Below, piece by piece: positions 13,430 through 37,473 of a stretch of DNA of 64,000 nt. Position 1 is the first letter of the stretch. The number at the start of each line of letters is the position of its first letter. The position numbers were made by a program, and so were the translations under genes. The notes beneath the pieces are model-generated. The model worked only from the letters and a program-made list of their open reading frames with translations, did not search any database and had not been told where the DNA came from. Location of the stretch: the NCBI GenBank assembly GCA_000004985.1, contig GG738910.1. The stretch is one strand, 5' to 3'. The DNA is from Naegleria gruberi. Taxonomy: Eukaryota.

Positions 13430-16400
13430 TTAAATGTTGGAAATTATTGCCTCACTCTTCTGATTTTCCTCATTTACATCCTCAAGAGATTCGAATTCTA
13501 TTATTGGATTTTCGTGGTGAATAGGTTGAATGAGATAGGTCTGACATTCTCCTTTTCCTTTCACCTGAACAATTCTCTCTTCGTAGGTGTACATATCATG
13601 TACTCTTTCATAGGTTGCTCTAGAAATTTGAATTCTTCCTGCTATTGAGGTTGATTCCATTCTTGAGGCAGTATTCACTGTATCACCCCACAAATCAAAT
13701 GCAAACTTTCTCTTTCCAATAACACCAGATGTAGCTGGTCCAGTATTGATACCAACACGGATATTAATTTGATGAGGAGGTATTAATTGTTGTTGATTAT
13801 TTTCAAATCTCTCTCTAATAAACTTCTCTATTGTTTTGGTATTGTAATTTTTGATAACTCCAAATGATTCACAAGCAAATTTACACATTCTTTCAGCATG
13901 ATCTGAATCTGGAAGTTCGTTGAGACCGGAAACTGCAAAATAAGCATCTCCAATAGTCTTGATTTTTTCAATATTATATTTCAATGTCAAATCATCAAAA
14001 CCATTAACAATTTCATTTAACAATCCTACCAATTCGTGGGAGGCCATGTTGGAAGACATTTGTGTGAATCCAACCATATCTGAGAAGAAACATGTAATGC
14101 AATTCAATTTCTCTGAAATAAAACTCTCTCCGGTAGAATTTTTCAACTTGTTAGCAACTGAGAAAGGTAGAATGTTTAGTAACAATTCTTCAGAGTGTTT
14201 CTTCTCATCCTGTAATAGGGCATTCTTTTTCTTCTCAGAGGTTTGATCAGCAATGAAACAAACAACCAACTCCTTTCCCTTATGCAGCACAACAAATATG
14301 CTAATCTTGCTTGGAAATTTCGTCTTGTTCTTTCTAATACATTCTCCTTCAAAAGTCTCTCCTGTGGAAACATCCTCGTTAGATTGATTGCTTCGTATAG
14401 ATTGCACTATTGCCTCTACGGATTTTTTTACCTTATCCTTAATAGCGTCCTCAAACAAATCGAATATTGATGTTCCTATGATTTCAGTCTTGTTGTATCC
14501 AAACATGGTTTGGGCAACTGGATTAAAGGCATCAATATCACCTTTTGAATTCCAACACATAGCTACTCCATCTATTGAGGCATTCAAAACAGATTGAATG
14601 ATAGAGGTATTGTTATCATTGAGAGCATATACCTTGTTAGATTTTGAGAAAGTCCTTTTTAAAGTAGCTGTGGCACCTGTGGATCTTGCCTTTGGATCTA
14701 CTTGATGGAATAAAATATAGTTTCTCAAGTCCTCAGAGCTTTCTATGGCATCTGTATTCAAATAGTTTAGAATCATTCTCAAAGAGTTAACTCCATCAGA
14801 ATAACTACTGAATTGCTTGTAAATAAAGAAGAATAATATTGTTATGAATGGAACAGTCACAATTCCAAAACCTGTGTCAAGTGAGAATAAGGGAACTGCC
14901 GCATAAATAGCAAATATACCTGAGAATTCTATCAATGTAGAGGACACATGTGTCATGTACAGTAAAACTTGGGCATACAGCTCGTGAACATCACTGGATT
15001 TTGATGAAACTTTTTGAGATAGCAAAACTGTCAAATCCAACATTGTAGCTACAACGGTGTCCATGCTTATTGTGCAATTGCTACCATATTTTTTCACTTC
15101 TTGAAAAGTACAGTTATCGTCTCCTCTAATTATCATATCGATTTCAGGGTACATGCCTATCACTAAAGTTTCGTCCTTCTTTGTTGAAGATCCATACATA
15201 CATAAATTCCAAAAATATCTTACTTTGGCCACCAATGGCTCTATTTCCGAATACAGGGCATAAACTTCTGAACTGGTTCTCAGTGGAGGGTTGATTATTG
15301 GCAAAGAGCTTGGAAGAGAGGTATGCATATACAGCTCTGTTACTGCAAAAATTAAATGTTGAAGATAATAGGCAGCGTCATTTGAATCTTTCATAGTAAC
15401 ATAGGATTGACGAGCATACACGCCGTTTCCAGTCATTTCCTCTACAAAAAGACCACAACTTAACGAAGTGAACACCAAAATACCAACAGCCGTGAATATT
15501 ACCAACATTCTTGGATTGAATACCTTACTGTATTCTATTTTAAGAGAAACATCTCTTCTACCATTTCTTGCATTCAACGAGTGATAAATTTTTCCAATAA
15601 TGTTTTTAGAAATAGACTTCTCATAAAGTTTGAAAATACTATCCGTAAATTTCAAATCCTTATAGACATAGTAAATAAATAATATTCCTAGTAGTAGATA
15701 AATGAATAAGAGACTAAAATACACTCCAATTATAATATACTGATACATAGCTCCATTATCGATTGATCTGTCCATATACTGGTTACAAAATGAATTAAAG
15801 GCCTGAATTACAGTGTCATTATTGTAGTATACCCACATAAATGCATAATCATCATATGTACTATTATGACCAGAATCTATAGAGCTGATCAGATCTGTGA
15901 CAGAGGATATGGCCATATTGGTAAAGTCAGCAATGGTGGCATTAATTTGAATGAAAGAAGTGAAAGATTGGTTATTACTACCGTACACAGTTTGAGGCTT
16001 GTAGAGAGGATAATACACTTCATGGAAATCAGAATATAAAGCAAGTGAAAACTTTCCATGACTGGCCATGTTTTTGATAGTTTGATAAGTATTAATGATG
16101 TCGTTAAGAGCGGCTCTATGACTCTGTTTATATTCGAGCACTGTTTCATATCCATAATCTTTCATCATCTGTGACCAATCAGATTCATTCTTATAGAGAT
16201 AGGAAAAGGCTTGGAAAGTTCTGACCTCAGATATTGTGTGAGTATTTGTAGAAATGGTGGAACATGAAGTAAATACAAGCATAACCTCAGAAGTTACCAT
16301 ATAGGAAAAGTAAATTGACATCGAAAGACAAACAGCAAAAAATAATAATGAAAATAAAACAAAAGCTACAAAAAGTGAACATCTGAAACTTGTAGAATGA

Positions 16401-18661
16401 GGAATAGCCAAATTGTTTCTGAACACGTCATTTCTGTTCTCAATCCCATCAAATGATTCCCCAACTACATTCATACTAGGATCTGATGCGTTATCATCTT
16501 CTGTTGCAGACATATTGAAGGCCTTGTTCTTTCTGTACATTGAATCTGAGCCACTAAATCTATATTTGGCCTTATTAGATACTGATCGCCTAACCTTTGC
16601 CTTCATTGCATTCTTTTCCTCTGCCTCTAACTTGATTGCCTCTGTGAATAATTCAGTTGCTTCTTCCTTGTTAAACATGAACGACTCTAAAAATTTTCCA
16701 TACGAAATAACTAAGTCCTTATCAGAAGGATATGCAGACAACAGATTATTGTAGGTAGTGTCAGAACTTTCAATAATTGAACCAATTTTAAGAACTGTAG
16801 CCTCTAGAATATTATAATTTACAATCTCATTCATTAATTCTTTCCATACATCTCTGTGCAGAGATCTCAAGATATCTTGTTGTAATTCCAGGTCTTCCAA
16901 ACTATTTTGAAGTTCATACCTTGTGGTTCCAGTTTCATTCTTGGCAATTTCTTTCAATTTTACATTAATTTGATATTTGTAGTAAAGGCCAGGTTTTCTT
17001 CTCTTAATTTTAGATAGTACTGATTTGGAAAAAGTTTGTGCGTTGGAATCGGCAATATTGACATTGGATATAATGGATGCAAAGAGAATGAGTAAACTGT
17101 AATCTGTGAATGAACTTTGAGTAGTAATTCCCTTGATAAATGCAATAGTTGCATCAACATCATAAACACTAACATTTCCACCAATTGATCTTATATAGGA
17201 GTTACTAAGAAAGGAAAATTTGAGAAAAAGGGCAAGAGATTTCTGGTATCCACTCTCCATAATACCTTGATAAAAGTAAAATGATCCAGACTCTAGTACC
17301 TTTAAGAAACTAAGGTCAGCTGCATTCTCATTACCATCTGTGGCTTCTTGGTTTGTAGTATTTTCGTCAGTGCTAGTACTGGCAAACTCTGAAATATTGT
17401 TCCTAATTAATTTCAAGTGACGTCTTACAACAAACTCAACAAACACACAATACGTAATACCAAATAAAACAGCTAGAACCAGAACAAAACAAGCAAGCCC
17501 TATCCCCAATCCATTATAGTCAAACGACGACTTTGGAACTGTGGTAAATAATATGTTTGAAACAAGTGCTGCCAAGGCTGCTCCAACTCTAGCTCCTAAA
17601 CCTATTCCGAACAATGAGTTATCAATTTTTTTGTAAAAAGGCATAGTTTTAAAATGAAGTATTGCCAATCCAATACTACATATCAAGTGTATAGCACTTC
17701 TTACGTATGAGTATTGAAAAGGTACCAACATTTGAACGCATAATTGTATCAAGGTTGTGGACTGCAAGCAGGCAATAATAATTGGACTCTCTGAAATGAA
17801 TGGGGTTGAATTGAGCATGTGACAATTTGTAGTAATAAAGAGGCAAACTCCATTCAAAATGATCAATAATATGGATGCCAATGAGAACACTATCGTAAAC
17901 AATATTTGTGTTTGCGACATTGACGAATAGCATGAAATTTTCTCATTTGGAAAACTAGTGAGTACACCTTGATCCAAATCACAATTGAAAATAGTATTCA
18001 TCATTACAAATAAGAATACGCTTGAACCAAGCAAAAATACTCTACATGAAATGGAAAAAACCTGTCTCAAATATGGCAGAAATTTCGAAGTAATCTTAAA
18101 GGCATACATTGATGCTCCTACAACACAACATAATATAAATACAAAACCAACTCCTACAAAGGAAATAACAACCGAGCCAATATAAGGAAGTCTATCCAAT
18201 GACAAACTTAATGGCCAGTTTAAAACGTTAGCCAACCATACTCCCCATTCTCCATATGTTGAGCTGGTCAAGCTTTCTCCTAAAACAGGCAAAAATATTC
18301 CAATATACAAAAAGTAAATATTCAAAACTAGGAAGAATATGTAATTCTTGTATCCTTTCTTCAATCCACCATCTTGAAAATAGAACAAATAGGAAAAAAA
18401 AGAGGAAAGTATTTTCTTTGCGTTGTACTGATTTGTTTGTAAACTAGTAGAGGTTGAAGCAACTGTACTAGTTTCGTTTGGATTACTCGTCTCGGCTGCT
18501 GGCGAAATTACACTACCAATAGCTATGGATGACATGGAAGAGTTCATATTAATGTTTTTAGTGGAGGGAGTCCTGTCAAATGCTGCTTTTGACACACCTC
18601 TTTCTAAAGGATGATGGCGATCCATTGTTTTTTTAGCCTTTGTTCTTTTGCCAACCATCAT
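13430..18661 (-). CDS. Receptor-type class III adenylate/guanylate cyclase with many transmembrane segments, a PAS domain and a single C-terminal cyclase homology domain (1743 aa)
   Basis: About 14 hydrophobic helices in the N-terminal two-thirds. PAS-like region IDGVAMCWNSKGDIDAFNPVAQTMFGYNKTEIIGTSIFDLF. Cyclase domain FFSDMVGFTQMS...IKTIGDAYFAVSGL...IRVGINTGPATSGVIGKRKFAFDLWGDTVNTASRMES. One catalytic domain implies a homodimeric enzyme. Confidence 0.85.
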   Translation of the reverse strand: MMVGKRTKAKKTMDRHHPLERGVSKAAFDRTPSTKNINMNSSMSSIAIGSVISPAAETSNPNETSTVASTSTSLQTNQYNAKKILSSFFSYLFYFQDGGLKKGYKNYIFFLVLNIYFLYIGIFLPVLGESLTSSTYGEWGVWLANVLNWPLSLSLDRLPYIGSVVISFVGVGFVFILCCVVGASMYAFKITSKFLPYLRQVFSISCRVFLLGSSVFLFVMMNTIFNCDLDQGVLTSFPNEKISCYSSMSQTQILFTIVFSLASILLIILNGVCLFITTNCHMLNSTPFISESPIIIACLQSTTLIQLCVQMLVPFQYSYVRSAIHLICSIGLAILHFKTMPFYKKIDNSLFGIGLGARVGAALAALVSNILFTTVPKSSFDYNGLGIGLACFVLVLAVLFGITYCVFVEFVVRRHLKLIRNNISEFASTSTDENTTNQEATDGNENAADLSFLKVLESGSFYFYQGIMESGYQKSLALFLKFSFLSNSYIRSIGGNVSVYDVDATIAFIKGITTQSSFTDYSLLILFASIISNVNIADSNAQTFSKSVLSKIKRRKPGLYYKYQINVKLKEIAKNETGTTRYELQNSLEDLELQQDILRSLHRDVWKELMNEIVNYNILEATVLKIGSIIESSDTTYNNLLSAYPSDKDLVISYGKFLESFMFNKEEATELFTEAIKLEAEEKNAMKAKVRRSVSNKAKYRFSGSDSMYRKNKAFNMSATEDDNASDPSMNVVGESFDGIENRNDVFRNNLAIPHSTSFRCSLFVAFVLFSLLFFAVCLSMSIYFSYMVTSEVMLVFTSCSTISTNTHTISEVRTFQAFSYLYKNESDWSQMMKDYGYETVLEYKQSHRAALNDIINTYQTIKNMASHGKFSLALYSDFHEVYYPLYKPQTVYGSNNQSFTSFIQINATIADFTNMAISSVTDLISSIDSGHNSTYDDYAFMWVYYNNDTVIQAFNSFCNQYMDRSIDNGAMYQYIIIGVYFSLLFIYLLLGILFIYYVYKDLKFTDSIFKLYEKSISKNIIGKIYHSLNARNGRRDVSLKIEYSKVFNPRMLVIFTAVGILVFTSLSCGLFVEEMTGNGVYARQSYVTMKDSNDAAYYLQHLIFAVTELYMHTSLPSSLPIINPPLRTSSEVYALYSEIEPLVAKVRYFWNLCMYGSSTKKDETLVIGMYPEIDMIIRGDDNCTFQEVKKYGSNCTISMDTVVATMLDLTVLLSQKVSSKSSDVHELYAQVLLYMTHVSSTLIEFSGIFAIYAAVPLFSLDTGFGIVTVPFITILFFFIYKQFSSYSDGVNSLRMILNYLNTDAIESSEDLRNYILFHQVDPKARSTGATATLKRTFSKSNKVYALNDNNTSIIQSVLNASIDGVAMCWNSKGDIDAFNPVAQTMFGYNKTEIIGTSIFDLFEDAIKDKVKKSVEAIVQSIRSNQSNEDVSTGETFEGECIRKNKTKFPSKISIFVVLHKGKELVVCFIADQTSEKKKNALLQDEKKHSEELLLNILPFSVANKLKNSTGESFISEKLNCITCFFSDMVGFTQMSSNMASHELVGLLNEIVNGFDDLTLKYNIEKIKTIGDAYFAVSGLNELPDSDHAERMCKFACESFGVIKNYNTKTIEKFIRERFENNQQQLIPPHQINIRVGINTGPATSGVIGKRKFAFDLWGDTVNTASRMESTSIAGRIQISRATYERVHDMYTYEERIVQVKGKGECQTYLIQPIHHENPIIEFESLEDVNEENQKSEAIISNI

Positions 18662-19611: not shown

Positions 19612-20025
19612 ATGGAGCTTTCAATACCATCAGCAATAGGAGTACCAATAGAGTGTATTTCTTCACCACATACAATTGCTTCATCAATACGGCCTTTTAC
19701 TGCAGTGTCATCTTCTCAATTAAAAAGTACTACAACAACAATAGATAAGAAGAGAAGACTCAGCAATCCCCCAAAGCCAGTAGTAAACTTTAATGGCTTT
19801 AAACATTTTGTGAGACATGTTAGAAATAACTCTCGTATTTTGGATGAAGAAGTTGTGCCAGAAGAACCAACAGAAGCAGTCCCAGTTACAACAGTCAAGA
19901 AAGTTGTTACTGTGCGCTCCAATAGCAAGATCTTTTCTTTCACGCATTCAATACTGGTGCTGTATGGAGTTTTATTAGCATTGGCTCTGTTTACCATCAT
20001 CAGTGCTTTAATTATTTTAGATTAA
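19612..20025 (+). CDS. Small hypothetical protein with C-terminal transmembrane anchor (tail-anchored-like)
   Basis: 137-aa ORF ending in a hydrophobic helix ILVLYGVLLALALFTIISALIILD. No family recognised. Antisense ORFs overlap it. Weak support. Confidence 0.3.
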   Translation: MELSIPSAIGVPIECISSPHTIASSIRPFTAVSSSQLKSTTTTIDKKRRLSNPPKPVVNFNGFKHFVRHVRNNSRILDEEVVPEEPTEAVPVTTVKKVVTVRSNSKIFSFTHSILVLYGVLLALALFTIISALIILD

Positions 20026-20136: not shown

Positions 20137-21528
20137 ATGCAAAGACTTGTCACATGGATTCTTGTTTGTCTGTGCTTGGTGACTTGTAATGCAAATATGG
20201 CTAGTGGTGTTGAGCAGAACAGGAATGTGAGAAAATATCATAATAATATCAAAGCTGGGAGCACTTCATCATATGTTCAGCCTGGCATTAATAATTCTTT
20301 ACAACCTCTGTTTGGACATAATATTGGATTAATTACTAACCCGTCTGGACAAAATTATCAATTATCACAATCAACAATTGATTTACTGATGGAGTTGACA
20401 AAACAGGGCTATTTGAATTTGGTTGCACTTTTTGCTCCCGAACATGGAATTTATGGTGACAAGCCTCCAGGGCAATTCTTTAATGATTATATTGACCCAT
20501 ACACTAAATTACCTGTTTATAGTTTATATAGTGAAACTAATCCGACTCATGAACCACTTCCTTACATGTTGAAAAATGTTACAATGCTAGTTTCGGATAT
20601 TCAAGATGTTGGAATGAGACCTTTCACGTTCATTAGTACAATGTGTGAAGGATTAATTGGAGCAAAGAAAAATTCAATCAAGTTCACAGTTTTGGATAGA
20701 ATTAATTATTTGAATGGAAACATTATAGCTGGTCCAATTTTGAATATGAAATACAAAAGTTTTATTGGAATTTATAAATTACCAATTGTAACTGGTATGA
20801 CTATGGGCGAATTGGCTCTATTGTTTGACAAGGAAATGTATATTAATTTAGACAATGATCTAACAATTATTCCAATAGTAGATGATAGTTCTCAAACCTA
20901 CGGGAAATACAGACCTTCATTCAGAGAAATAAGACAAGTATTCAGACAACCAATATTATATCTACCACCAAGTCCAAATTTGCCAACAATAGAAAGTGTA
21001 GAGTTGTACTCTGGAATGGTCTTGTTTGAAAGTCTGTTCAACATATCTATTGGAAGAGGAACAACAAATCCATTCCAAGTCATTGGTTCTCCATTCATTG
21101 ATTCAAGAAAATGGATGAGCTTTTTGCAACAAGAATTTGCTACAGAACTATCTCTCTATTTCAAATACGTTCAGCTTTCATATCCCACTTATTTTATTCC
21201 ATCTCTTGATATCCACCAGAATGCTCCATGTGAGGGAATTCGTTTAGTGTTAAAACCACTCGATTACAACAATATTACAAACATTGAAGAGTACTATAGA
21301 AGCTTTTTACCCCTCTCTCTTACCCTCATGAAATCTTTACTCAAACTTTACGGAAAGGAATTGCTAATTTGGAGAACTGATTTTGCTCATATTCTCATTG
21401 GATCTGAAGAAACAATATCACAAATATTGGACAATTCTGTGACAGTGGGAGAGATTGTCAATTCATGGAATAAGGATCTTGTCAAGTTCGACAAGAATGT
21501 CAGGCAAAAGTATTTAATTTACAAATGA
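20137..21528 (+). CDS. Secreted DUF1343 family protein (bacterial NamZ/YbbC exo-beta-N-acetylmuramidase-like)
   Basis: N-terminal signal peptide MQRLVTWILVCLCLVTCNA. Conserved DUF1343 blocks as I recall them from bacterial YbbC/NamZ: GLITNPSG, LVALFAPEHGIYG, LPVYSLYSE, VSDIQDVGMRPFTFISTM, VLDRINYLNGNIIAGPILN, KYKSFIGIYKLPIVTGMTMGELALLF, PPSPNLPTIESVELYSGMVLFESL..IGRGTTNPFQVIGSPFI. Single intronless ORF. Confidence 0.7.
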   Translation: MQRLVTWILVCLCLVTCNANMASGVEQNRNVRKYHNNIKAGSTSSYVQPGINNSLQPLFGHNIGLITNPSGQNYQLSQSTIDLLMELTKQGYLNLVALFAPEHGIYGDKPPGQFFNDYIDPYTKLPVYSLYSETNPTHEPLPYMLKNVTMLVSDIQDVGMRPFTFISTMCEGLIGAKKNSIKFTVLDRINYLNGNIIAGPILNMKYKSFIGIYKLPIVTGMTMGELALLFDKEMYINLDNDLTIIPIVDDSSQTYGKYRPSFREIRQVFRQPILYLPPSPNLPTIESVELYSGMVLFESLFNISIGRGTTNPFQVIGSPFIDSRKWMSFLQQEFATELSLYFKYVQLSYPTYFIPSLDIHQNAPCEGIRLVLKPLDYNNITNIEEYYRSFLPLSLTLMKSLLKLYGKELLIWRTDFAHILIGSEETISQILDNSVTVGEIVNSWNKDLVKFDKNVRQKYLIYK

Positions 21529-22969
21529 AGTTAATGACAGAACAACAGAAACCACCACCTCACAATATTCGATCGTTCATCAAATCCAAATAAAACAATA
21601 TTCAAATTTTTTTCCTTTAATTTAGATGTGCAATATTCTACTTCTAATCCCTATTCCAGTTCTTGAAAAAATCGTTCCAATTACTAATGTTATTGTGCCC
21701 TTGACATTCTTCCATCAGCCCTATCATAGATATCCCACAAAACTTCAAGACACTTAGACTCCAACTTGTCATATTCCATTAATTTAATGAATATCTCAAA
21801 TTCTCCCTTCCCAACTTTGGAAAGTTGTGGTTTGAGTCTAATTTAAATAATAGATATCTTGACAATTTCATTTCACCAATAGCTGCAAAGTTTACATGGC
21901 GATATGATAGAAGTCCCCAAATATAGATCCTACTCAAGTCAAATCTTTAACCACCATATAAAATATTACTTTTGGCTACAACATCTTTGGAAAAGTAGAA
22001 TGATATTGTAGTTTTCGAGAAATGATGATGGAAAATGATCGATTGAATGGATGAAACATAGAATTTTATCAATTCCATATCAAGCTGGGAAGAAATTTAC
22101 AATGAATTAGACATTTTAGAGAAATGCTGTTCCAAATTAGACAGATTTGTTTCTTACTGAATTACTAGTGGATCTTCCACATCAAACGAAGAACTTGACA
22201 TGGTAAAATACAACACTTGAAAACAGGTTTCCAGTATTGGGTGCCTTAATTAATGACAAAGGGCGAGAATGAAAGAAAACTTGATAATGTGTTCTTTGAA
22301 CAAAACCGCATGTTCAGGAGCAACGTCCAAACTTGTGTAAGCAATCATTTAATCAAGAACCAACACTCTTACTTTGGGGAGTTCAATATTTACTCAAACA
22401 TTTATGTAATATTTCAATACCAACATCCCAAATTTCAAAATCAAGAGTGAGCACTTGGCATCTTCTTGGAATAGGGTTGGGAGCAATCATCTGTCATTGA
22501 GCTCAGAAAGTATTATAAGAAATTCATATTTATTTTCAAATGCCACATCTAAGGAGATTGGGTTCGCACATGATTTTAAGCAATTTGGAAAAACAAGTTT
22601 TTGTGTTTTAAAGTGCTTTATTTTGAAACAGCACAAGAAATTAAACAACAATCTTTTGATAATTAGCTGAAGATTGAGCTTTTTCAAATAATATCATAGC
22701 CACAGTAATTGTCCTCTGTTGTATGTGGACAATAATTCAAAGAATGAGTACCATTCAAAGTTGATAAAAGTTACAGAAGCAAATCTTTGGGTGTTCTGAT
22801 TTCAATAAAAATTCAATTGTATTCAAATTTTTTTCAGCGTCGATATAATTGCCTGGAATCTCTCCTTATCCATTCATTGTTTGTGAATGTTTGTTATGCT
22901 TCTATGTTTGTCTACCGTACCACCAATACAGCCTGCTGTTATTCATAATAATTTTTATTTATTAAAAAA

Positions 22970-24107
22970 ATGACTGAACCAACACCAGTCGATATCACAC
23001 AAATCCCACCACTATCTCATTCCACCAAGGTTGCCTTAATATCTGGTGTTACTGGACAAGATGGATCCTATCTTGCTGAATTACTTTTAGATAAAGGATA
23101 TACTGTATATGGCATGATTAGACGTTCATCATCTTTTAATACAGGAAGAGTTGAACACCTCTATAAGGATGTTCATATTGTTGATGCGAGTAAGTTTAAC
23201 ATTTTATTATTGCTTAGTTTAATTAGAGTTTAAACTTGTGTACGGTGATTTAACTGATACTGGTAACATTATATCTATCATTTCAAAGATAAGACCTGAT
23301 GAAATATACAACCTGGGAGCTCAATCTCATGTTAAAATAAGCTTTGAAATGCCTGAATACACAGCAAATGTTGATGGTATTGGTACCTTACGATTTCTTG
23401 AAGCAATCCGAGCATGTGGTTTGGAAACGAAGACAAGATTTTATCAAGCAAGCACATCAGAGTTGTATGGCTTGGTACAAGAAATTCCTCAAAAAGAAAC
23501 TACTCCATTTTATCCTCGATCTCCTTATGCTTGCGCTAAGTTGTACAGTTACTGGATTGTTATTAACTATAGAGAAGCTTATAACATGTTCGCCTTGAAT
23601 GGTATTCTTTTCAATCATGAAAGTATCCGTAGAGGTCCAACCTTTGTAACAAGAAAAATCACAATGGCAGTAGCTCGTATTCATCTAGGTCTTCAAGAGT
23701 GCTTGTATTTGGGTAATTTGGATGCTGAAAGAGATTGGGGCCACGCAAAGGATTACGTTGAGGCTATGTGGTTGATGCTCCAACAAGAGAAGCCATCAGA
23801 CTATTGTGTTGCCACTGGAGAAAAGCACAAAGTTAGAGAATTTGTTGAAAAATCGTTTGCTGTTCTTGGTAAGAAGGTTGAATGGAAAGGAAAGTCAGGA
23901 ACTGTTGATGAATATGGTGAAGTTGATGGTGCTGTTAGAATTAGAGTTGACCCTCGTTATTTCAGACCAACCGAAGTTGAATTATTAATTGGAGACCCAA
24001 CAAAGGCCGAAACTGAATTAGGATGGAAGAGAAAAGTCAGCTTTGAGGAACTAGTAAAAGGAATGGTAAAAGGAGACGTGGAGTTATTGGGTAGCCAATG
24101 TAACTAG
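22970..24107 (+). CDS. GMD: GDP-mannose 4,6-dehydratase (GMD), 2 exons: 22970..23189 and 23227..24107
   Basis: Exon 1 carries the Rossmann motif [20 protein letters not shown] 37-nt intron GTAAGTTTAAC...TTAATTAG joins in frame to [11 protein letters not shown]... Exon 2 has [75 protein letters not shown]. Near-collinear with animal and bacterial GMD. Confidence 0.9.
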
Positions 24108-25502: not shown

Positions 25503-28500
25503 TTATTGTTGTGGTTGTCTTGGCTCTAATTCTAAAGACCTATCCCACAATGTATCTTCATCAACAAGTTGAATGTTTCCAAGAGAAAGTAAGGATTGGA
25601 TAGAAGGATTGGTTGAAACTCCACTAGTGTAAAGTTTGTAATCCTCCAAAGTTACTGTTTGGATTTGATTGATAATTCTCTTGATGAAATCAACAGTTTC
25701 GAAATAGTAAGGTTGCATTTGATATTGTCTAATTTCTAAAATAATTTTAGAAACTTGTCTTCGTTTGAATACGTTGATTAGGCCATCACGAATATAGTCT
25801 GGATTACCATCGTTGATGAATGTTAAATCTTTCAGATACATGCTTAATGGAGGAATGCATGGAGGGAGGCAAAGTTGAAGAGCTTGTCTCATGTTCTTGT
25901 TTGCTTGCTCTTGAGAGCACAATTTCTTCAAATCCTCATACAATGTCAAGTACTCTGTTGGAACTGTTGCCCAAGTCTTTTTCAATCTGTAAACAGAAAC
26001 ATTGGATAAACCGCTGAGTATTTCTGAAAGACCATGGAAATTATTGATATCTCTTAATGCATTTGCCAACTCTATAAATTTGATAATGTATCTTCTTCTA
26101 ATTTTGAGATCATTTTGTGAAAGAATAGAACATGCAACAAATTGAGTCATCTTATTCCATCGATCAGTCAAGTGGGCAATATTTGGAGCTTCGTCATATT
26201 TTGAAGATTTTGTCCAGGCACCACTAAGGCATTCCTTTGGTTCAATCTTTTGGAAATATTCGTATTCAATGAGTGTGATTTGTCTTGCGATTTCAATTGG
26301 GCTCCATTCGAGAATATTAAAGGCAACATGTTCACTAAAGTTTTCTGGAATAATAGGGTCAGGAACATCAGTTTGTTTAGCATGTTTAACAGCCTTATCG
26401 TTATCTTTGATCAGCTTGTTACTGAGCGTTTTTCTGAGAGCATTGCAGAAGGAAGAAAATTCTTTGATATTTGCAACTGAATCCAAAAATTGAATCAAAC
26501 GAACAAGCAATAAATTATCAAAATCATGGAAATACTTTTCGACCCACATTTTAACAGCATTGATAACTCTGAGGAGTACTTTAGTGTTGGCTTCTGGTTG
26601 AATATCTTGCTTTTTCTGTTCTTCAGCAATATTGAATCTGTCAATTAACTTATCCATTAGGACATGGCTAGAACAGAAGGAACGATAGGTGAGGAAGAAG
26701 ACATCTCTGAACTTTGGGTCCGTTTCCTTGTCGCTGGTGATTTTTTCAATAAGCTTGTCAAGAGTAGCTGCTTTGATTTGATTATTCTCCACTACATAGT
26801 TCTTCTCAGAGTCTTCAGTAAGGATAAGCTTCTCGTGATTTTTCTCAATGTTCTCTAATTTGGCTTGGTGAGATATCAAGAGGCAGTCAATACTTTCAAG
26901 GATATATGATTCATTTTCTGATTGTGATAGTGGGAAGCAACAAACAGACAATAGAGTACCTAAAGCCCATTTCCATCTGTCGTCATGAATATCAATGCTG
27001 AAAACAGGAATAAGCTTTTGTACAATTGTAACGAATAAAGGAGTTAACATGGTATTTGTCAACATTGGATCCATTCTCTTTCTTACATTTTCAGCATCTT
27101 GTGAAGATTGGTTGAATTGCTCAATATATTTCATAATTAAAAGCAATACCTCCTCGATAACAGGAGAATATTTTTCGTTTTCCATAATCATCAATTCCCA
27201 TTTTTGTTCAATGAAACAGACCAAAATTTCAATAACAATTGTTTTGATCATTCTTCTAGTAACCCTGACAGGATATGCAATGTGCTTGTTAATGGCAATC
27301 GAAAGAAGTTTTACAAAACTAACGAGCACATCTGGAGACTTGTGGTTCCAAATCTCAGGCCATTCTTCTTTCTTTCTATTTCTCAAACAGTGAACAAACG
27401 AAACAGCAAAGTGAGACTGAAGATCATTGTCCATATTTCTTAATAATTTTTCTACATGGGCAATCTCAAAGAAAAGTGGCATTACTAGTTTGCAAATTTC
27501 ATTTCTAGAATCAGCAGAGCTAAACTTTGTTAATGAGTCTAGCTTTACAATTAATCTATTAATTATTCTCAGAGTTATTGTTCTTAAATCTGGTTTGTTG
27601 GCCTTTTGTAAGATACCAATAACAAACTTTAGAAGAAATGGTGTTTCACTACACATGTTAACTTCTACAAATATGCTTGAGTCAATTATAATTTCAGCAA
27701 AATCAAACTTTAGACCCACCACAACAGGAGAAGATTTGAATTGTGTTGTAAGTACATAATCATTGAGGGCTGTCTTGACAAATTTTCTAAATCTAACATC
27801 ATCTTTCATTTCTTTCATTAGTGAAATTTCCAATAAATCACACATGAACAAGGCCAAGTGCCTATTGACAACCTTAACAAAATGTAACTTGATAGGGTCG
27901 CCTGAGGCTGTGAGTAGTCTTTCCATCAATTTTGTTTGTAAGCTTCTCATCTTGGTGTAGAAAACTTCTGTAAATACGTCTTGTTTCTTTCCCTCCAAAA
28001 TGTAGAGTTTCATTGATTTGACAAGTGTATCAAACAAAAACCAAGAAAGTTTCAATGAGTCCAAAGCATTAATTTCTTCAACAGTGCTTTCTTGGCTTTC
28101 TGATGATTGGTTAGAGCGTGGTTTAGAGAAGTAGGTTGCTCTTCTTGGTCTATTGGCTACGCTATCGTTTGTAGAAGAAGAAGCTCCTGAACTTTCTGTA
28201 GTATTCGAGTTTGATTCTTTGGTTCTACTCTCTGTTTCTTTGGTATGACATGATTTGAAGAATTCTTCCCATCTTTCTGCCAACAGTAAACAAAAGCTTG
28301 TATTATCTGGCGTTGGAGGATTTTTGAACATGTAATAAATATATCCATTCAAAAATTGATCTCTCTCATAATAATCTAATCTGGAATTACTTCTCATACC
28401 TCTCAACATGTGGAGAAGAGTTTCAAAGACTAGCAATGAAAGGGAGGTTGTGGTTGTTGATGTTGATGTTGTTGTCTCTTTCACAGATTCAACATTTTTA

Positions 28501-31500
28501 GTTCTGGAGGTGAGAGTGGCTGTTCTCTTTTTTACAAATCCAGCAATACCTAGAGTTTTCTCAGATACAGAGTTATTGTTTTGAATTTCTGAACTTGTAG
28601 AATTCTGCAAAGAGGCTGTTTTAACATTAGCAATAATGTACATTACACAATTCAAAAATACAGGGAAATGATAAAGCATTTGAGACCAATGAGCTTTCTG
28701 GAAGTTTTTCAAAATACTTTCAGCATCAGAAAGTGACATGGCATCATTCAATTGACTCAAAAAGGAACCCTTTGGTAAATTATTGTTCTTTGAATTAATG
28801 AAAAGCCCAGAGTTTGTTAATAAAGATACAGCATTCTTGTCTGATGGGAAAATTGATGATTTGGCAATAACATTAAATCTAAAAATGGATTTTCCATTAG
28901 CATACTTTTGTAAAGACTTATCAGAAAGATAATTGTTTGGTAAAGTTGTGCACTTATATATTGGTAATTTTTTCATACCATTCTTAAATCCTTCATCTTG
29001 GACCAGTTTCAGAATAGAGAAGCCAATCACTGTAGTATCAGCTTTTCCAACTACACCTGATACTGGTTGACCTCTCTTGGAGGAAACATGTCTAAATTCA
29101 AAAACTAAATGATGGTTATCATGAATAGGGAATGGAAGTTGAATTTTGATTTGGTCAAAGAACAGAGGATACTTTTCGTGATAAGTAATACTGGATATGG
29201 CTTGTTGCTTAATATCCATACCTCCAATATAGTTTCTACTTCCTTCAGAGAAAATTCTACTAGCTCCAACAAGAACGCCTCCACTCATTTCATCATTTTC
29301 TCTTAACAAAACTCTAACGGCAACTGATTTGTAAGAATTTGGAAGTGATGTCATATTGATGTTATCAAGTAAAATATACAAAACATGATTGAATGTTAAA
29401 TCTAACTTTGGTGCTGTTGTGAAGAGAGTTGTGGATTTTGAAGAATGAGAAAAAGTATTGAAAGACATGGTTATGGTTTCATCATCATCAAATGTGAAGG
29501 AATCAGCATTGTCTTCTGAGACAGAAACAGCTTTAACTTCATGCACTCCAGTATCATAGAGTGGCCTAACTTGATGATATTTAGAAATATTATCAGGATT
29601 ACTATCAATAAGCATTGTAAATTTTGCAGAAATATTTTTGAAAGTAATATTGTCAACTTTTAAAGTTCCTTTCTGTTTGGAGTAGTCTCTTTGGTGTTCA
29701 ATGAGACTAGAAACATTGCACCTTTGTTTCTTTCCATCTAAGTGAGGGACAACAAATAGCTTGTCAAAGATAATTGCTCCTTTTCTCACTTCATATGTTG
29801 GTGGCTCTTCAATGCTTACTTTGAGTTCATTAGATGTGACAGATTCTCGTTTTTCCTCAAAGAGAGGCTCGACGGCACAGATCAGAGGGGATTTAAATTG
29901 ATCCAAGAACGAGTAAGCTGTTTTAAGTTTTTCCAAGTATGATTTTTTAGATGATTCATCAATCTTTTTCTTTGCTAGATAGGTATTATCAACATATGAG
30001 TTATCTGAGAATATTCTCTTAACCCAGAGAACTAGATAAATGTTTGGATTCTTATCCTTCACAGAAAATATAGCCTTCATCTTGGCCTCTGTACTAAGTA
30101 AATCTTTAGGGAAAGATTTTTCAATTCCCAATTGGGTAAGAGTTCCCATACCAGTGTTCAAAGTAAAATTGAACTCTTCTGAAATTCTTGATTCTGTCTT
30201 TTTATCATACAGATACAGTGTCGCATAGAGTGGTTCCAGATTAATATCAGTATTTTCAAATATTAAACCTTTGGCATTGATGAGAATTTTGAGAGATTGA
30301 TCGACTTGGAAAGGATTTGAAGGTATTCCTCTCTTGCAAACATCCTCTTCCAAATTTGACAGTCTATAAAAAGGGTTATAGATTGAGGCAACTCTATTTG
30401 AAGTTTCTTCATACATCTTTTCGGATACTTCTCGGAAGTTTAACTCTGTGTTAACAATTTCTTCTTCTTCCTCTTCTTCTACATCAACTTCTAATGTTTC
30501 AAGATCGACATCACTTCTTCTTGGGTCAACTAAACTACTACCACTATTGGTCAAAATCATTCCCAAACCAGTATTGGAAGCAGATGAATACTTGCCTCCT
30601 AAATATTCTTGTGAGTTGACAGAAAGATAATTCGTTGAAATTGGAGAAAATGATGAACTGGCAGGAGGAGCAACATTCACAGTTGGGTTGGAAAGTACAT
30701 TATTGGTAGTGTTACTTCTAGCTTTAAGTCTTTTTGGAGTAAGAGGTAGAGAGGCACTTGGAGTAAGAGATGGTTTGTAAGGTGAATCATCAATTCTAAT
30801 CTGATTGGCTGATAGTGGAGCAGAAATTGGTACAATTGTACTTCCGATTTGTGAGCTAATAAGTAAATTACAAGTGGTTGATGTAGAATCAGACAATTGC
30901 TTTCCTGTAATTGGATTCAATCCAGCCTTTGCGCTCATCTCCAAATCCCAATCCAATTGATTTTTAATTTTCGAACCATCTAAATTATTATTATTAATTC
31001 TAACAATTTGTTTTTCATCTAGAATTAATCGTGTTGCAAATTGAAGAGCAGGATGATCGGAAAGTGAATTATTAAGAATTTGTCTAATAGATTCATCATT
31101 ATTTGATGTTAGTACATCATTAAAGTGGATTGGTAAATTCTCATGAACCATCTCTATGAAATTATCTGGTGGTGAAAAGAGAGGATGTTCCACAAAATCA
31201 TCAGATTGTTTTGGTCGACTTGTAACTGGTACATTTGTTGTTGCTGTTGTTAGACCATTAGTATTATTACCTGTTGTACTAGTGGTTGTTGATGAATTAT
31301 TGTTTCTACATTCTGTATTTTCCTTCTGTGGTGATACTTGTTGTTGATCAACTTCATTTTCTTGTGAGAAGACTTTAACTCCAACAGCCGATGATGCTGC
31401 AAGAGGAGAAGAATTCTTGAAGGAAGATGATTTGCTGTTGGTGTTGGTGGAGGAGGCAGACGATGGGGTATTAGAAGGTCTGGGGGATCTAGGAGTCAAA

Positions 31501-36411: not shown

Positions 36412-37473
36412 TTAAAGAATTCTGTCCTTCTTCCACAAAGCAACAGTAGCATTCTTGGATTGTTCATGCCATACTTGCCAGTGAACAGGTCTTCCATCAA
36501 CAGATTCAGGATTGATTTGTTCGAGCTTGTCAGCTATAACATCAACTTCCTTATAAGCTTTTCCAAAAGAAGTAAATTCCAAAGAGTGAGCTTCAGCAAG
36601 ATTGACATAAGCTTCAGCATCAGTCTTGACTTGTTCTTCTTCGTGATGTCCTAATTTACGAACAAACTTGGCAGGTGATCCAGCCCACATTTCACCATGT
36701 GGAATTCTTCTTCCAGGTGGGACTAAAGAACCAGCAGCAATGACAACATTATCTTCAATTACAGCACCTTCGAGAATGGTTGCGTTCATTCCGATAACAC
36801 ATTCATTACCAATACGACAGGCATGGAGCTTTACACCATGTCCAATAGTGGTGTGACCTCCAATAACAACATTACTGTCAAAACCACCAAAGTTTGGCTT
36901 ATCATCAGTTGTGATAACAACACCATCTTGAATATTAGTGTATCCTCCTATTTCAATACTATTCTTGTCTCCTCTCAAAACAGCGTTATACCAAACATTT
37001 ACATGATCACACAATCTAACATCACCAATAACAGTGGCGGATGGAGCAACCCAAACACCACCAGCTTGAATAGATGGATCGTATCCGTTGAACCAAACAA
37101 ATCTTCTATGACGATTGTACAATTCAAGGAATTGTTTGTATAATTGACCCAAAGCTCTTCTTCCCTTGTGGTTTGGTACTTCTGGTTCCGGAACAGGAAC
37201 GTATGTACTTGGATATTCAGCTGGATAATTACTATTTTCAAGGATTTCTCTGTCTGGTAAGAAGACTAAACGATCCTTTCTTTGTTTATGTAAAATATGT
37301 TGTTTACCAGAGAGAACATCCTGGTCATCCAAACCAGTACTTCTTACAGCACGAGCTTGAGCGGTACTGGCGTTTGTACCTCTTTTCATTACTTCCACAT
37401 ATTGTTCGTTCAATTCTTCGATTCTTGTCTTTGCCTTTCGCTCCAACAAGCTCTTAGCGAGTCTTCTCATCAT
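36412..37473 (-). CDS. Gamma-class carbonic anhydrase family protein (left-handed beta-helix; complex-I gamma-CA-like) with ~140-aa N-terminal and ~70-aa C-terminal extensions
   Basis: Hexapeptide-repeat core VIGDVRLCDHVNVWYNAVLRGDKNSIEIGGYTNIQDGVVITTDD...IGGHTTIGHGVKLHACRIGNECVIGMNATILEGAVIEDNVVIAAGSLV with the His-rich metal-site context typical of gamma-CA/CamH. Confidence 0.8.
   Translation of the reverse strand: MMRRLAKSLLERKAKTRIEELNEQYVEVMKRGTNASTAQARAVRSTGLDDQDVLSGKQHILHKQRKDRLVFLPDREILENSNYPAEYPSTYVPVPEPEVPNHKGRRALGQLYKQFLELYNRHRRFVWFNGYDPSIQAGGVWVAPSATVIGDVRLCDHVNVWYNAVLRGDKNSIEIGGYTNIQDGVVITTDDKPNFGGFDSNVVIGGHTTIGHGVKLHACRIGNECVIGMNATILEGAVIEDNVVIAAGSLVPPGRRIPHGEMWAGSPAKFVRKLGHHEEEQVKTDAEAYVNLAEAHSLEFTSFGKAYKEVDVIADKLEQINPESVDGRPVHWQVWHEQSKNATVALWKKDRIL

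Follow-up and report, generated by a model that had tools for sequence, protein, structure and literature searches.

A GH171/NamZ-family gene of probable bacterial ancestry in the nuclear genome of Naegleria gruberi

A 64,000-nucleotide stretch of the Naegleria gruberi genome (assembly GCA_000004985.1, contig GG738910.1; hereafter the window) carries, at 20137..21528 of the plus strand, an uninterrupted open reading frame (ORF) of 463 codons. By its sequence, domain architecture, predicted fold and active-site residues, the encoded protein is a member of the GH171/NamZ family. Here, we demonstrate that this gene resides in a eukaryotic genome, that it belongs to a monophyletic clade of eukaryote-type sequences, and that it evolves under purifying selection. 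We consider it likely that it is a functional nuclear gene for a GH171 exo-beta-N-acetylmuramidase, derived from one ancient bacterial transfer, and that its product would release N-acetylmuramic acid (MurNAc) in phagolysosomes or outside the cell and so feed an etherase already described in this amoeba.

The ORF product and its predicted fold

No start codon lies between the upstream in-frame stop and the ATG at 20137. The complete, intron-less coding sequence (463 codons plus stop) corresponds to the public gene model NAEGRDRAFT_59573 (XP_002670902, UniProt D2VY90, annotated as "DUF1343 domain-containing protein") with 20 additional N-terminal codons, and its product is 100% identical to that model. 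DUF1343 is the former name of GH171/NamZ, which is described in Pfam by PF07075 and PF20732. An earlier note, made from the DNA letters alone, had recognized the DUF1343 signature over the whole length of the ORF. Each block that it cited appears in the translated ORF (GLITNPSG, ALFAPEHG, DIQDVGMRPFTFISTM, VLDRIN and PPSPNLPTIESVELYSGMVLFESLFNISIGRGTTNPF), and the two Pfam matches are close to full profile. The Rossmann-like catalytic domain NamZ_N (PF07075; 20323..20991, plus strand; amino acids (aa) 63-285) was matched with E=1.1e-58 and 198.4 bits (cut-off 26.9) over profile positions 1-202 of 203, and the auxiliary domain NamZ_C (PF20732; 21004..21522, plus strand; aa 290-462) with E=2.8e-28 and 100 bits (cut-off 25) over profile positions 2-152 of 152. 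Both scores are so far over the gathering thresholds that a chance match is excluded. A search of NCBIfam with the ORF protein gave zero matches.

Structural comparison led to the same family and to the same two domains. In a sequence search of the PDB (phmmer), only DUF1343 structures were matched, namely 4k05 (E 1.4e-42) and 4jja (E 3.3e-40). An AlphaFold2 model, calculated from a 61-sequence alignment, had a mean predicted local distance difference test score (pLDDT) of 88.9 and a predicted template modelling score (pTM) of 0.86. It consists of a helix at residues 2-17, a disordered linker at 18-42 (pLDDT <50) and a two-domain body, in which an N-terminal Rossmann-like alpha/beta/alpha sandwich and a C-terminal alpha/beta domain enclose a cleft, as they do in 4k05 and 4jja. 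When this model was compared to the PDB with Foldseek, it superimposed on 4k05 with E 1.9e-28, a target-normalised template modelling (TM) score of 0.86 and a root-mean-square deviation (rmsd) of 2.8 A, and on 4jja with E 4.0e-23, a TM score of 0.82 (likewise target-normalised) and an rmsd of 3.8 A. No other PDB fold was found below E 1e-3 in that search.

In the NamZ of Bacillus subtilis (BsNamZ), Glu92 at the tip of beta-strand 2 is the proposed catalytic residue, and Arg279 points into the interdomain cleft (PMC8054146). By alignment, these residues correspond in the amoeba protein to Glu102 of the PEHG motif (codon 20440..20442, plus strand) and to Arg307 of the GRGTT motif (codon 21055..21057, plus strand). 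Glu102 was invariant in both alignments of eukaryotic and bacterial sequences (17/17 and 61/61), and Arg307 was invariant in 17/17 and conserved in at least 90% of the 61-sequence alignment. Invariance of the Glu and the Arg points to a conserved enzyme rather than a decayed relic. Comparison with a 96%-identical relative on a metagenomic contig (L009) gave a ratio of nonsynonymous to synonymous substitution rates (dN/dS) of 0.13 (dN 0.016, dS 0.124), which indicates purifying selection.

In the N-terminal sequence MQRLVTWILVCLCLVTCNAN, a single basic residue precedes a hydrophobic core of 12 residues (mean Kyte-Doolittle value 2.98), and small residues occur near positions 17-19. These features, together with the helix at residues 2-17 of the model, predict an endoplasmic reticulum (ER) signal peptide at aa 1-20 (20137..20196, plus strand), probably cleaved after residue 17-19 or so according to the -3/-1 rule. 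The hydrophobic N-terminal pattern is kept in the orthologues, as judged by hydropathy. It is followed by a variable linker (aa 21-47; 20197..20277, plus strand), which has low pLDDT and cannot be aligned across lineages.

The public model has missed this region. It contains 443 aa, covers 96% of the ORF and begins at Met21, the second in-frame ATG (20197..20199, plus strand), and therefore lacks the hydrophobic N-terminus. The relative on L009 (protein P0121) has Val (GTG) at position 21 and its next Met falls within the conserved domain, whereas its upstream ATG, the A-rich context preceding it and the hydrophobic segment are all kept. The ATG at 20137 is thus the better start, Met21 is probably not the true one, and the public model is truncated. 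When the 463-aa product was looked up by exact sequence, no record was found. The correction is of practical relevance because a start set too late hides the signal peptide, so that secretome predictions overlook the protein.

According to hydropathy, every full-length member of the eukaryotic clade described below carries in its N-terminal part a hydrophobic segment of the signal or signal-anchor type. A short core resembling that of a signal peptide is present in Naegleria, Willaertia and several uncultured lineages. The Acrasis sub-lineage instead has an uncharged stretch of 27-28 residues, in several members placed after a charged tail (…DDYYSKSRKRN…), and this form looks like a type II signal anchor. 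Either form is predicted to place the catalytic body in the lumen of the secretory/endolysosomal system or outside the cell. The earlier note had described the secretion signal as eukaryote-style. A hydrophobic, signal-like N-terminus is indeed present, but its eukaryotic style cannot be demonstrated: BsNamZ carries a Sec signal peptide (PMC8054146), and the amoeba signal may thus have been inherited or rebuilt.

Distribution, phylogeny and genomic setting

A HMMER search of 1.84 billion cluster representatives returned 4,882 homologues at E<=0.001, most of them bacterial, against one small eukaryotic clade; the description of the family as overwhelmingly bacterial was accurate. In the ranked lists, a small set of closer sequences with 40-69% identity is followed by bacterial NamZ proteins with 33-39%; over all searches, the nearest non-eukaryotic homologues have 29-39% identity. 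Eukaryotic housekeeping homologues were absent from the top matches. All the closer sequences are located on eukaryote-type contigs. Among the genes beside them are those for SBDS, ARPC4, p34-Arc, HSP70, PP2C, protein kinases and OGFr_N, as well as a split gene for an RNA polymerase subunit. The search for orthologues in related protists that the earlier note had suggested recovered them from a N. fowleri-type contig, Willaertia magna and Acrasis kona (AKO1_008960), which together with N. gruberi are the named members of the clade.

Trees were built by neighbour-joining (NJ) from 213-217 NamZ domains, with published ciliate NamZ sequences left out. The 27 eukaryote-type sequences formed one bipartition, with a bootstrap of 92% on an automatic alignment and of 99% (Kimura distance) or 98% (gamma distance) on an L-INS-i alignment. 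The group of Naegleria and Willaertia had 100% support. Two further characters set the clade apart. In all of its sequences (27/27), about 9 residues are inserted between Pro319 and Pro355 (21094..21198, plus strand; ...QQEFATELSLYFKY...), as identified by length comparison: the segment has 35-38 residues in the clade, compared to a median of 27 in bacteria, where it reaches at least 35 in just 4/190 sequences. In addition, a profile of the clade scored its members at 539 bits or more and single-copy bacterial proteins at 429 bits or less. Midpoint rooting placed the eukaryotic clade four nodes deep among the bacterial sequences.

Among 185,579 prokaryotic species genomes, none contained a sequence with more than 38% identity. 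The best matches (29-38%) were spread over Acidobacteriota, Bacillota, Verrucomicrobiota, Planctomycetota, Actinomycetota and Bacteroidota, and no phylum was prominent. The simplest reading of these sequence comparisons is one old transfer from a bacterium to a eukaryote, before Naegleria/Willaertia and Acrasis split, the donor signal having since been erased. The earlier suggestion of a horizontal acquisition is in this way supported but also refined, as the event would be old and common to Naegleria, Willaertia and Acrasis, and neither recent nor specific to N. gruberi.

Two kinds of candidates for donor or vector were rejected. In 2.9 million viral contigs only two relatives were found, and at 33-36% identity they are no nearer than bacteria. 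Three proteins (P0127, 990 aa; P0128, 1544 aa; P0286, 827 aa) scored as high as the eukaryotic relatives or above them, but they are bacterial proteins with a tandem double NamZ; their scores are high because two copies are summed, and each copy falls outside the eukaryotic clade. This architecture, with two full NamZ_N plus NamZ_C units per chain, occurs in several Gram-positive-type bacteria, and we found no discussion of it in the NamZ papers that we consulted. P0127 ends in an LPQTG sortase anchor, and the gene for P0286 (L008, 757-3240) adjoins genes for a GH3 NagZ, a beta-lactamase and a MarR protein.

Within the eukaryotic clade, NamZ microsynteny is kept within sub-lineages and not between them. 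In one uncultured sub-lineage the NamZ gene lies directly upstream of SBDS on two contigs (L001, 1434-3664; L002, 6174-8683); the sole named match of the SBDS gene on L001 is Acrasis kona (52%), a suggestive but weak indication of affinity. In an Acrasis-like sub-lineage (L003, L093), NamZ is flanked by an ABC1 kinase gene and a zf-C2HC gene.

The composition of the N. gruberi gene is that of its host. GC content is flat across the 64 kb (0.30-0.38), GC content at third codon positions (GC3) is 0.289 for the ORF compared to 0.278 +/- 0.030 for 20 other long ORFs in the window, and the relative synonymous codon usage (RSCU) of the ORF correlates with that of these 20 ORFs at r = 0.92, within the host range of 0.83-0.97. 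The comparison of codon usage and GC3 proposed in the earlier note thus returned host-typical values. Introns in the orthologues also speak for eukaryotic residence. The W. magna orthologue (ABK040_016449) is interrupted by a 51-nucleotide (nt) GTAAGT...AAAAG phase-1 intron, the removal of which restores HG|MTMGEL, and the N. fowleri-type orthologue (FDP41_000984) by a different 51-nt GTAAGT...TTTAG intron in phase 0, which splits the catalytic FAP|EHG. Neither is present in the N. gruberi copy, and both are thus lineage-specific gains made after the arrival of the gene. The two introns (L006, 10746-10796; L007, after codon 165 of a gene starting at 462) begin with GTAAGTAT and keep the frame; one has an in-frame stop and the other has none. 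Very short and uniform introns (51, 51 and 37 nt) appear to be typical of these genomes.

The eukaryotic flanks noted earlier, a multi-transmembrane cyclase gene upstream and an intron-containing GMD gene downstream, are both as described. The first (13430..18661, minus strand) encodes an adenylate/guanylate cyclase of 1743 aa with PAS and TmcB-type TPR domains in Pfam; with its C-terminal class III cyclase domain and many transmembrane segments it has a sensor-cyclase architecture. In Willaertia, a cyclase gene likewise lies a few kb upstream of the NamZ gene. The GDP-mannose 4,6-dehydratase (GMD) gene (22970..24107, plus strand) contains a 37-nt GTAAGT...TTAG intron at 23190..23226. Neighbours are also shared at a greater distance: the DOCK-family gene at 25515-30401 of the window has its counterpart in Willaertia 2.6 kb downstream of NamZ, and the eIF2B-like gene at 36415-37470 has one near NamZ on the N. 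fowleri-type contig. Association with nagZ, amiE or murQ is typical of bacterial NamZ genes and does not define the family. No such peptidoglycan-recycling gene was found among the NamZ neighbours at the N. gruberi locus, which are instead the cyclase, a small transmembrane protein, GMD and the DOCK-family gene, as befits a eukaryotic locus.

The small protein is encoded by an ORF of 137 aa (19612..20025, plus strand) that has no Pfam match, ends 111 nt upstream of NamZ and is linked to it also on L009, with a difference of 1 aa. Its N-terminal half is Ser/Thr-rich and its C-terminal hydrophobic segment resembles a tail anchor, so that it is probably a real gene for a small membrane protein. 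At 96-97% nucleotide identity, L009 is collinear with the window only over a 2.2-kb block comprising this ORF and NamZ; the window positions concerned in the rearrangement are about 19430, 21598 and 45697. The sequence downstream of NamZ on L009 maps to 45697->43275, inverted, and its upstream 868 bp, with a Methyltransf_21 gene, has no match in the window. This layout is due either to an inversion of about 24 kb and a second rearrangement between strains, or to a chimeric metagenome assembly. The gap of about 1.4 kb between NamZ and GMD (21600-22950) is long for such a gene-dense window, and neither of its strands has an ORF reaching 72 aa; one of its edges coincides with the rearrangement breakpoint of L009. 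Rfam and tRNA scans of the whole window gave zero matches.

Proposed role and competing explanations

In the scenario we propose, the gene would have entered a heterolobosean ancestor once, from a bacterium, and would then have been inherited vertically, taking on host-like composition and lineage-specific introns and acquiring or keeping its ER-targeting signals. The signal peptide would direct the protein to the ER, from where it would reach phagolysosomes and/or the medium. In these places the peptidoglycan of ingested bacteria would be opened and stripped by lysozymes, amidases and hexosaminidases, and NamZ would cut the beta-1,4 bond at the non-reducing-end MurNAc through Glu102, with Arg307 lining the cleft, to give free MurNAc. 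After phosphorylation, this sugar would be split by the MurNAc-6-phosphate (MurNAc-6P) etherase of the glucokinase regulatory protein (GKRP) type into N-acetylglucosamine-6-phosphate (GlcNAc-6-P) and D-lactate.

Several elements of this scheme have precedents. Characterised NamZ is exo-acting, releases non-reducing-end MurNAc from peptide-free glycans and cooperates with NagZ and an amidase (PMC8054146). The GKRP homologue of N. gruberi is an active MurNAc-6P etherase for which a function in bacterial-wall digestion was proposed (Veiga-da-Cunha 2009, as cited in bioRxiv 10.64898/2026.05.08.723886). Several lysozymes are encoded in Naegleria genomes, along with an anhydro-MurNAc kinase, a D-lactate dehydrogenase (D-LDH) and a "glucokinase regulatory protein homologue" (PMC9928731). 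The earlier note had proposed a digestive or defensive muramidase. As an exo-acting enzyme in need of pre-processed, peptide-free glycan ends, NamZ would fit digestion and scavenging better than bacteriolytic defence, which favours the first half of that proposal over the second.

A number of points weigh against this scenario. The specificity of the enzyme, its localisation and its link to the etherase pathway are what we infer; the prediction of a signal peptide comes from hydropathy and the -3/-1 rule; and the catalytic role of Glu92 in BsNamZ is itself only a proposal from a homology model (PMC8054146). GH171 is functionally heterogeneous, as TfNamZ1 releases GlcNAc-MurNAc disaccharides and not MurNAc. 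This heterogeneity and the identity of only 35-39% to BsNamZ make the product of the amoeba enzyme uncertain. The kinase reported in Naegleria is of the anhydro-MurNAc type (PMC9928731); a free-MurNAc kinase and a lysosomal MurNAc exporter are missing pieces in the link to the etherase. Regarding the origin, the trees are distance (NJ) and not maximum-likelihood trees, and the best support for any bacterial sister clade in them was 17-20%, which gives no supported donor. Finally, three of the five clade sub-lineages consist only of uncultured sequences or of an unnamed EukProt sequence; the clade is thus likely, though not certain, to be confined to Heterolobosea.

An active GH171 glycosidase of another specificity or mode is improbable. 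Such an enzyme might release disaccharides as TfNamZ1 does, or act on N-deacetylated or other hexosamine glycans, and free MurNAc would not be its main product. That GH171 holds both monosaccharide- and disaccharide-releasing enzymes, that the amoeba protein is rather distant from BsNamZ and that its C-terminal domain, which forms one of the cleft walls, has insertions specific to the clade all speak for this possibility, and so does the fact that the best PDB sequence match is BF0371 while the active-site surroundings of BsNamZ are nearer to BF0379. Against it, Bacillus-type NamZ proteins match the amoeba protein far better (E ~1e-63) than the Bacteroides structures do (E ~1e-42), and Glu102, Arg307 and all signature blocks are conserved. 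Moreover, the downstream MurNAc-6P etherase of N. gruberi needs a source of MurNAc.

We find it less probable still that the enzyme would serve mainly in defence or in the management of bacteria, where its processing of peptidoglycan would help to sense, hold in check or kill intracellular bacteria (Legionella or chlamydiae, for example). Naegleria species do host intracellular bacteria (PMC12482156), and the predicted secretory targeting would fit delivery to the vacuoles that contain them. A comparable role has been proposed for the HGT-derived NAMZ of Paramecium bursaria, the expression of which shifts when the glycan-sensing network controlling the endosymbionts is perturbed (bioRxiv 10.1101/2024.09.14.613017). 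However, an exo-acting enzyme that needs peptide-free ends would not be bacteriolytic alone, and the long conservation of the gene in free-living bacterivorous heteroloboseans, along with the route through etherase and D-LDH, fits nutrition.

An ancestral eukaryotic gene lost nearly everywhere else, or a transfer from eukaryotes to bacteria, is very unlikely. The tree is intrinsically unrooted and resolves no bacterial sister, and median distances are similarly large within the eukaryotic clade (0.90) and among the sampled bacteria (0.93). Nevertheless, thousands of bacterial members from many phyla stand against one narrow clade, the named members of which are all heteroloboseans; midpoint rooting nests this clade among bacteria; and the substrate is a bacterial polymer, the bacterial genes being located in cell-wall recycling operons. 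Contaminant bacterial DNA or a chimeric mis-assembly, which has nothing in its favour besides the bacterial affinity of the family and the intron-less N. gruberi copy, is already refuted by the host-typical codon usage and GC3, the uniform GC content of the window, the 111-nt distance to a conserved eukaryote-side ORF with the same linkage in the independent contig L009, the spliceosomal introns and common neighbours of the orthologues, and the lack of any sequence above 38% identity in the prokaryotic genomes, so that the mis-assembly envisaged in the earlier note as grounds for refutation is excluded.

Returning to a secreted or phagolysosomal muramidase, a broader proposal can be put forward tentatively, as one that could well fail. 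Heteroloboseans may run a complete, compartmentalised pathway from MurNAc to central metabolites, with lysozyme, amidase, hexosaminidase and NamZ in the phagolysosome followed by export, a kinase, the GKRP-type etherase and D-LDH. Its parts would have been acquired from bacteria one by one, and NamZ would supply the first step that had been missing. Since the vertebrate glucokinase regulatory protein descends from the GKRP-type etherase lineage, NamZ would, if the proposal is true, help to explain why early eukaryotes retained an etherase.

To our knowledge, N-acetylmuramic acid is a sugar of bacterial walls only. NamZ is a plausible entry enzyme for its use by a bacterivorous eukaryote, given that the source of substrate for the N. 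gruberi etherase has so far been unexplained. The acquisition of prey-degrading enzymes by phagotrophs through horizontal gene transfer (HGT) is a well established principle. The value of the present case is thus incremental, and consists in making a eukaryotic MurNAc-utilisation pathway experimentally testable. As the clade includes N. fowleri, a human pathogen, a secreted enzyme without human counterpart could also serve as a marker.

Comparison with known systems

The closest well-studied relative is BsNamZ (YbbC), founder of GH171 (PMC8054146). Both proteins consist of NamZ_N and NamZ_C, with 36-39% identity over about 400 residues; the Glu proposed for catalysis and the Arg of the cleft are conserved; an N-terminal secretion signal is present in BsNamZ and predicted in the amoeba protein; and the presumed substrate class, the non-reducing-end MurNAc of peptidoglycan glycans, is the same. 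They differ in context and probably in purpose. The BsNamZ gene is part of a murQ-murR-murP-amiE-nagZ-namZ recycling operon, whereas the amoeba gene is nuclear and located among unrelated genes. In the amoeba protein, 27 variable residues follow the signal peptide and the C-terminal domain carries clade-specific insertions; the role of this protein would be digestion of prey walls instead of recycling of the cell's own wall.

Bacteroidota provide structural and functional comparisons. Bacteroides fragilis BF0371 (4k05) and BF0379 (4jja) were the only significant structural matches and have the cleft between the same two domains, but they are only 29-30% identical to the amoeba protein. The Bacteroidota paralogues, among them NamZ1 and NamZ2 of T. 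forsythia, have diverged in specificity, between the release of monosaccharides and that of disaccharides.

A different kind of relationship is that to the GKRP-type etherase of N. gruberi (Veiga-da-Cunha et al. 2009, Biochem J 423:323, as cited in bioRxiv 10.64898/2026.05.08.723886). It is likewise a bacterial-type enzyme for peptidoglycan sugars and would be the logical downstream partner of NamZ. Its fold and reaction are unrelated (it is a lyase/etherase acting on a phosphorylated sugar), and its location is presumably the cytosol. It also occurs widely in eukaryotes and not in one clade alone.

The search of the literature, which did not extend to the HGT table of the 2010 Naegleria genome paper, found no paper pairing Naegleria, Acrasis or Willaertia with DUF1343/NamZ, nor is the gene listed in the supplementary material of the papers on the Naegleria pangenome and the Acrasis genome. 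Transfer of NamZ to protists is, however, already known from ciliates. Paramecium bursaria NAMZ (bioRxiv 10.1101/2024.09.14.613017) is a bacterial GH171 gene fixed in a phagotrophic protist, as we propose for N. gruberi. Anaerobic APM ciliates (PMC13198582) have an HGT-derived NamZ alongside murQ and anmK. In these ciliates the gene has been interpreted as serving the processing of peptidoglycan or amino sugars. Ciliates belong to another eukaryotic supergroup, and neither of these papers mentions Naegleria or Heterolobosea. In two ranked lists no ciliate-labelled sequence was placed above the bacterial matches, which suggests that ciliates may have acquired NamZ independently. To the ciliate cases the present study adds a clade-wide distribution in heteroloboseans, a corrected gene model and a testable link to the etherase. 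The capture of NamZ would thus not be confined to ciliates, but would have occurred also in Heterolobosea, once and early, and the gene was then kept there under purifying selection.

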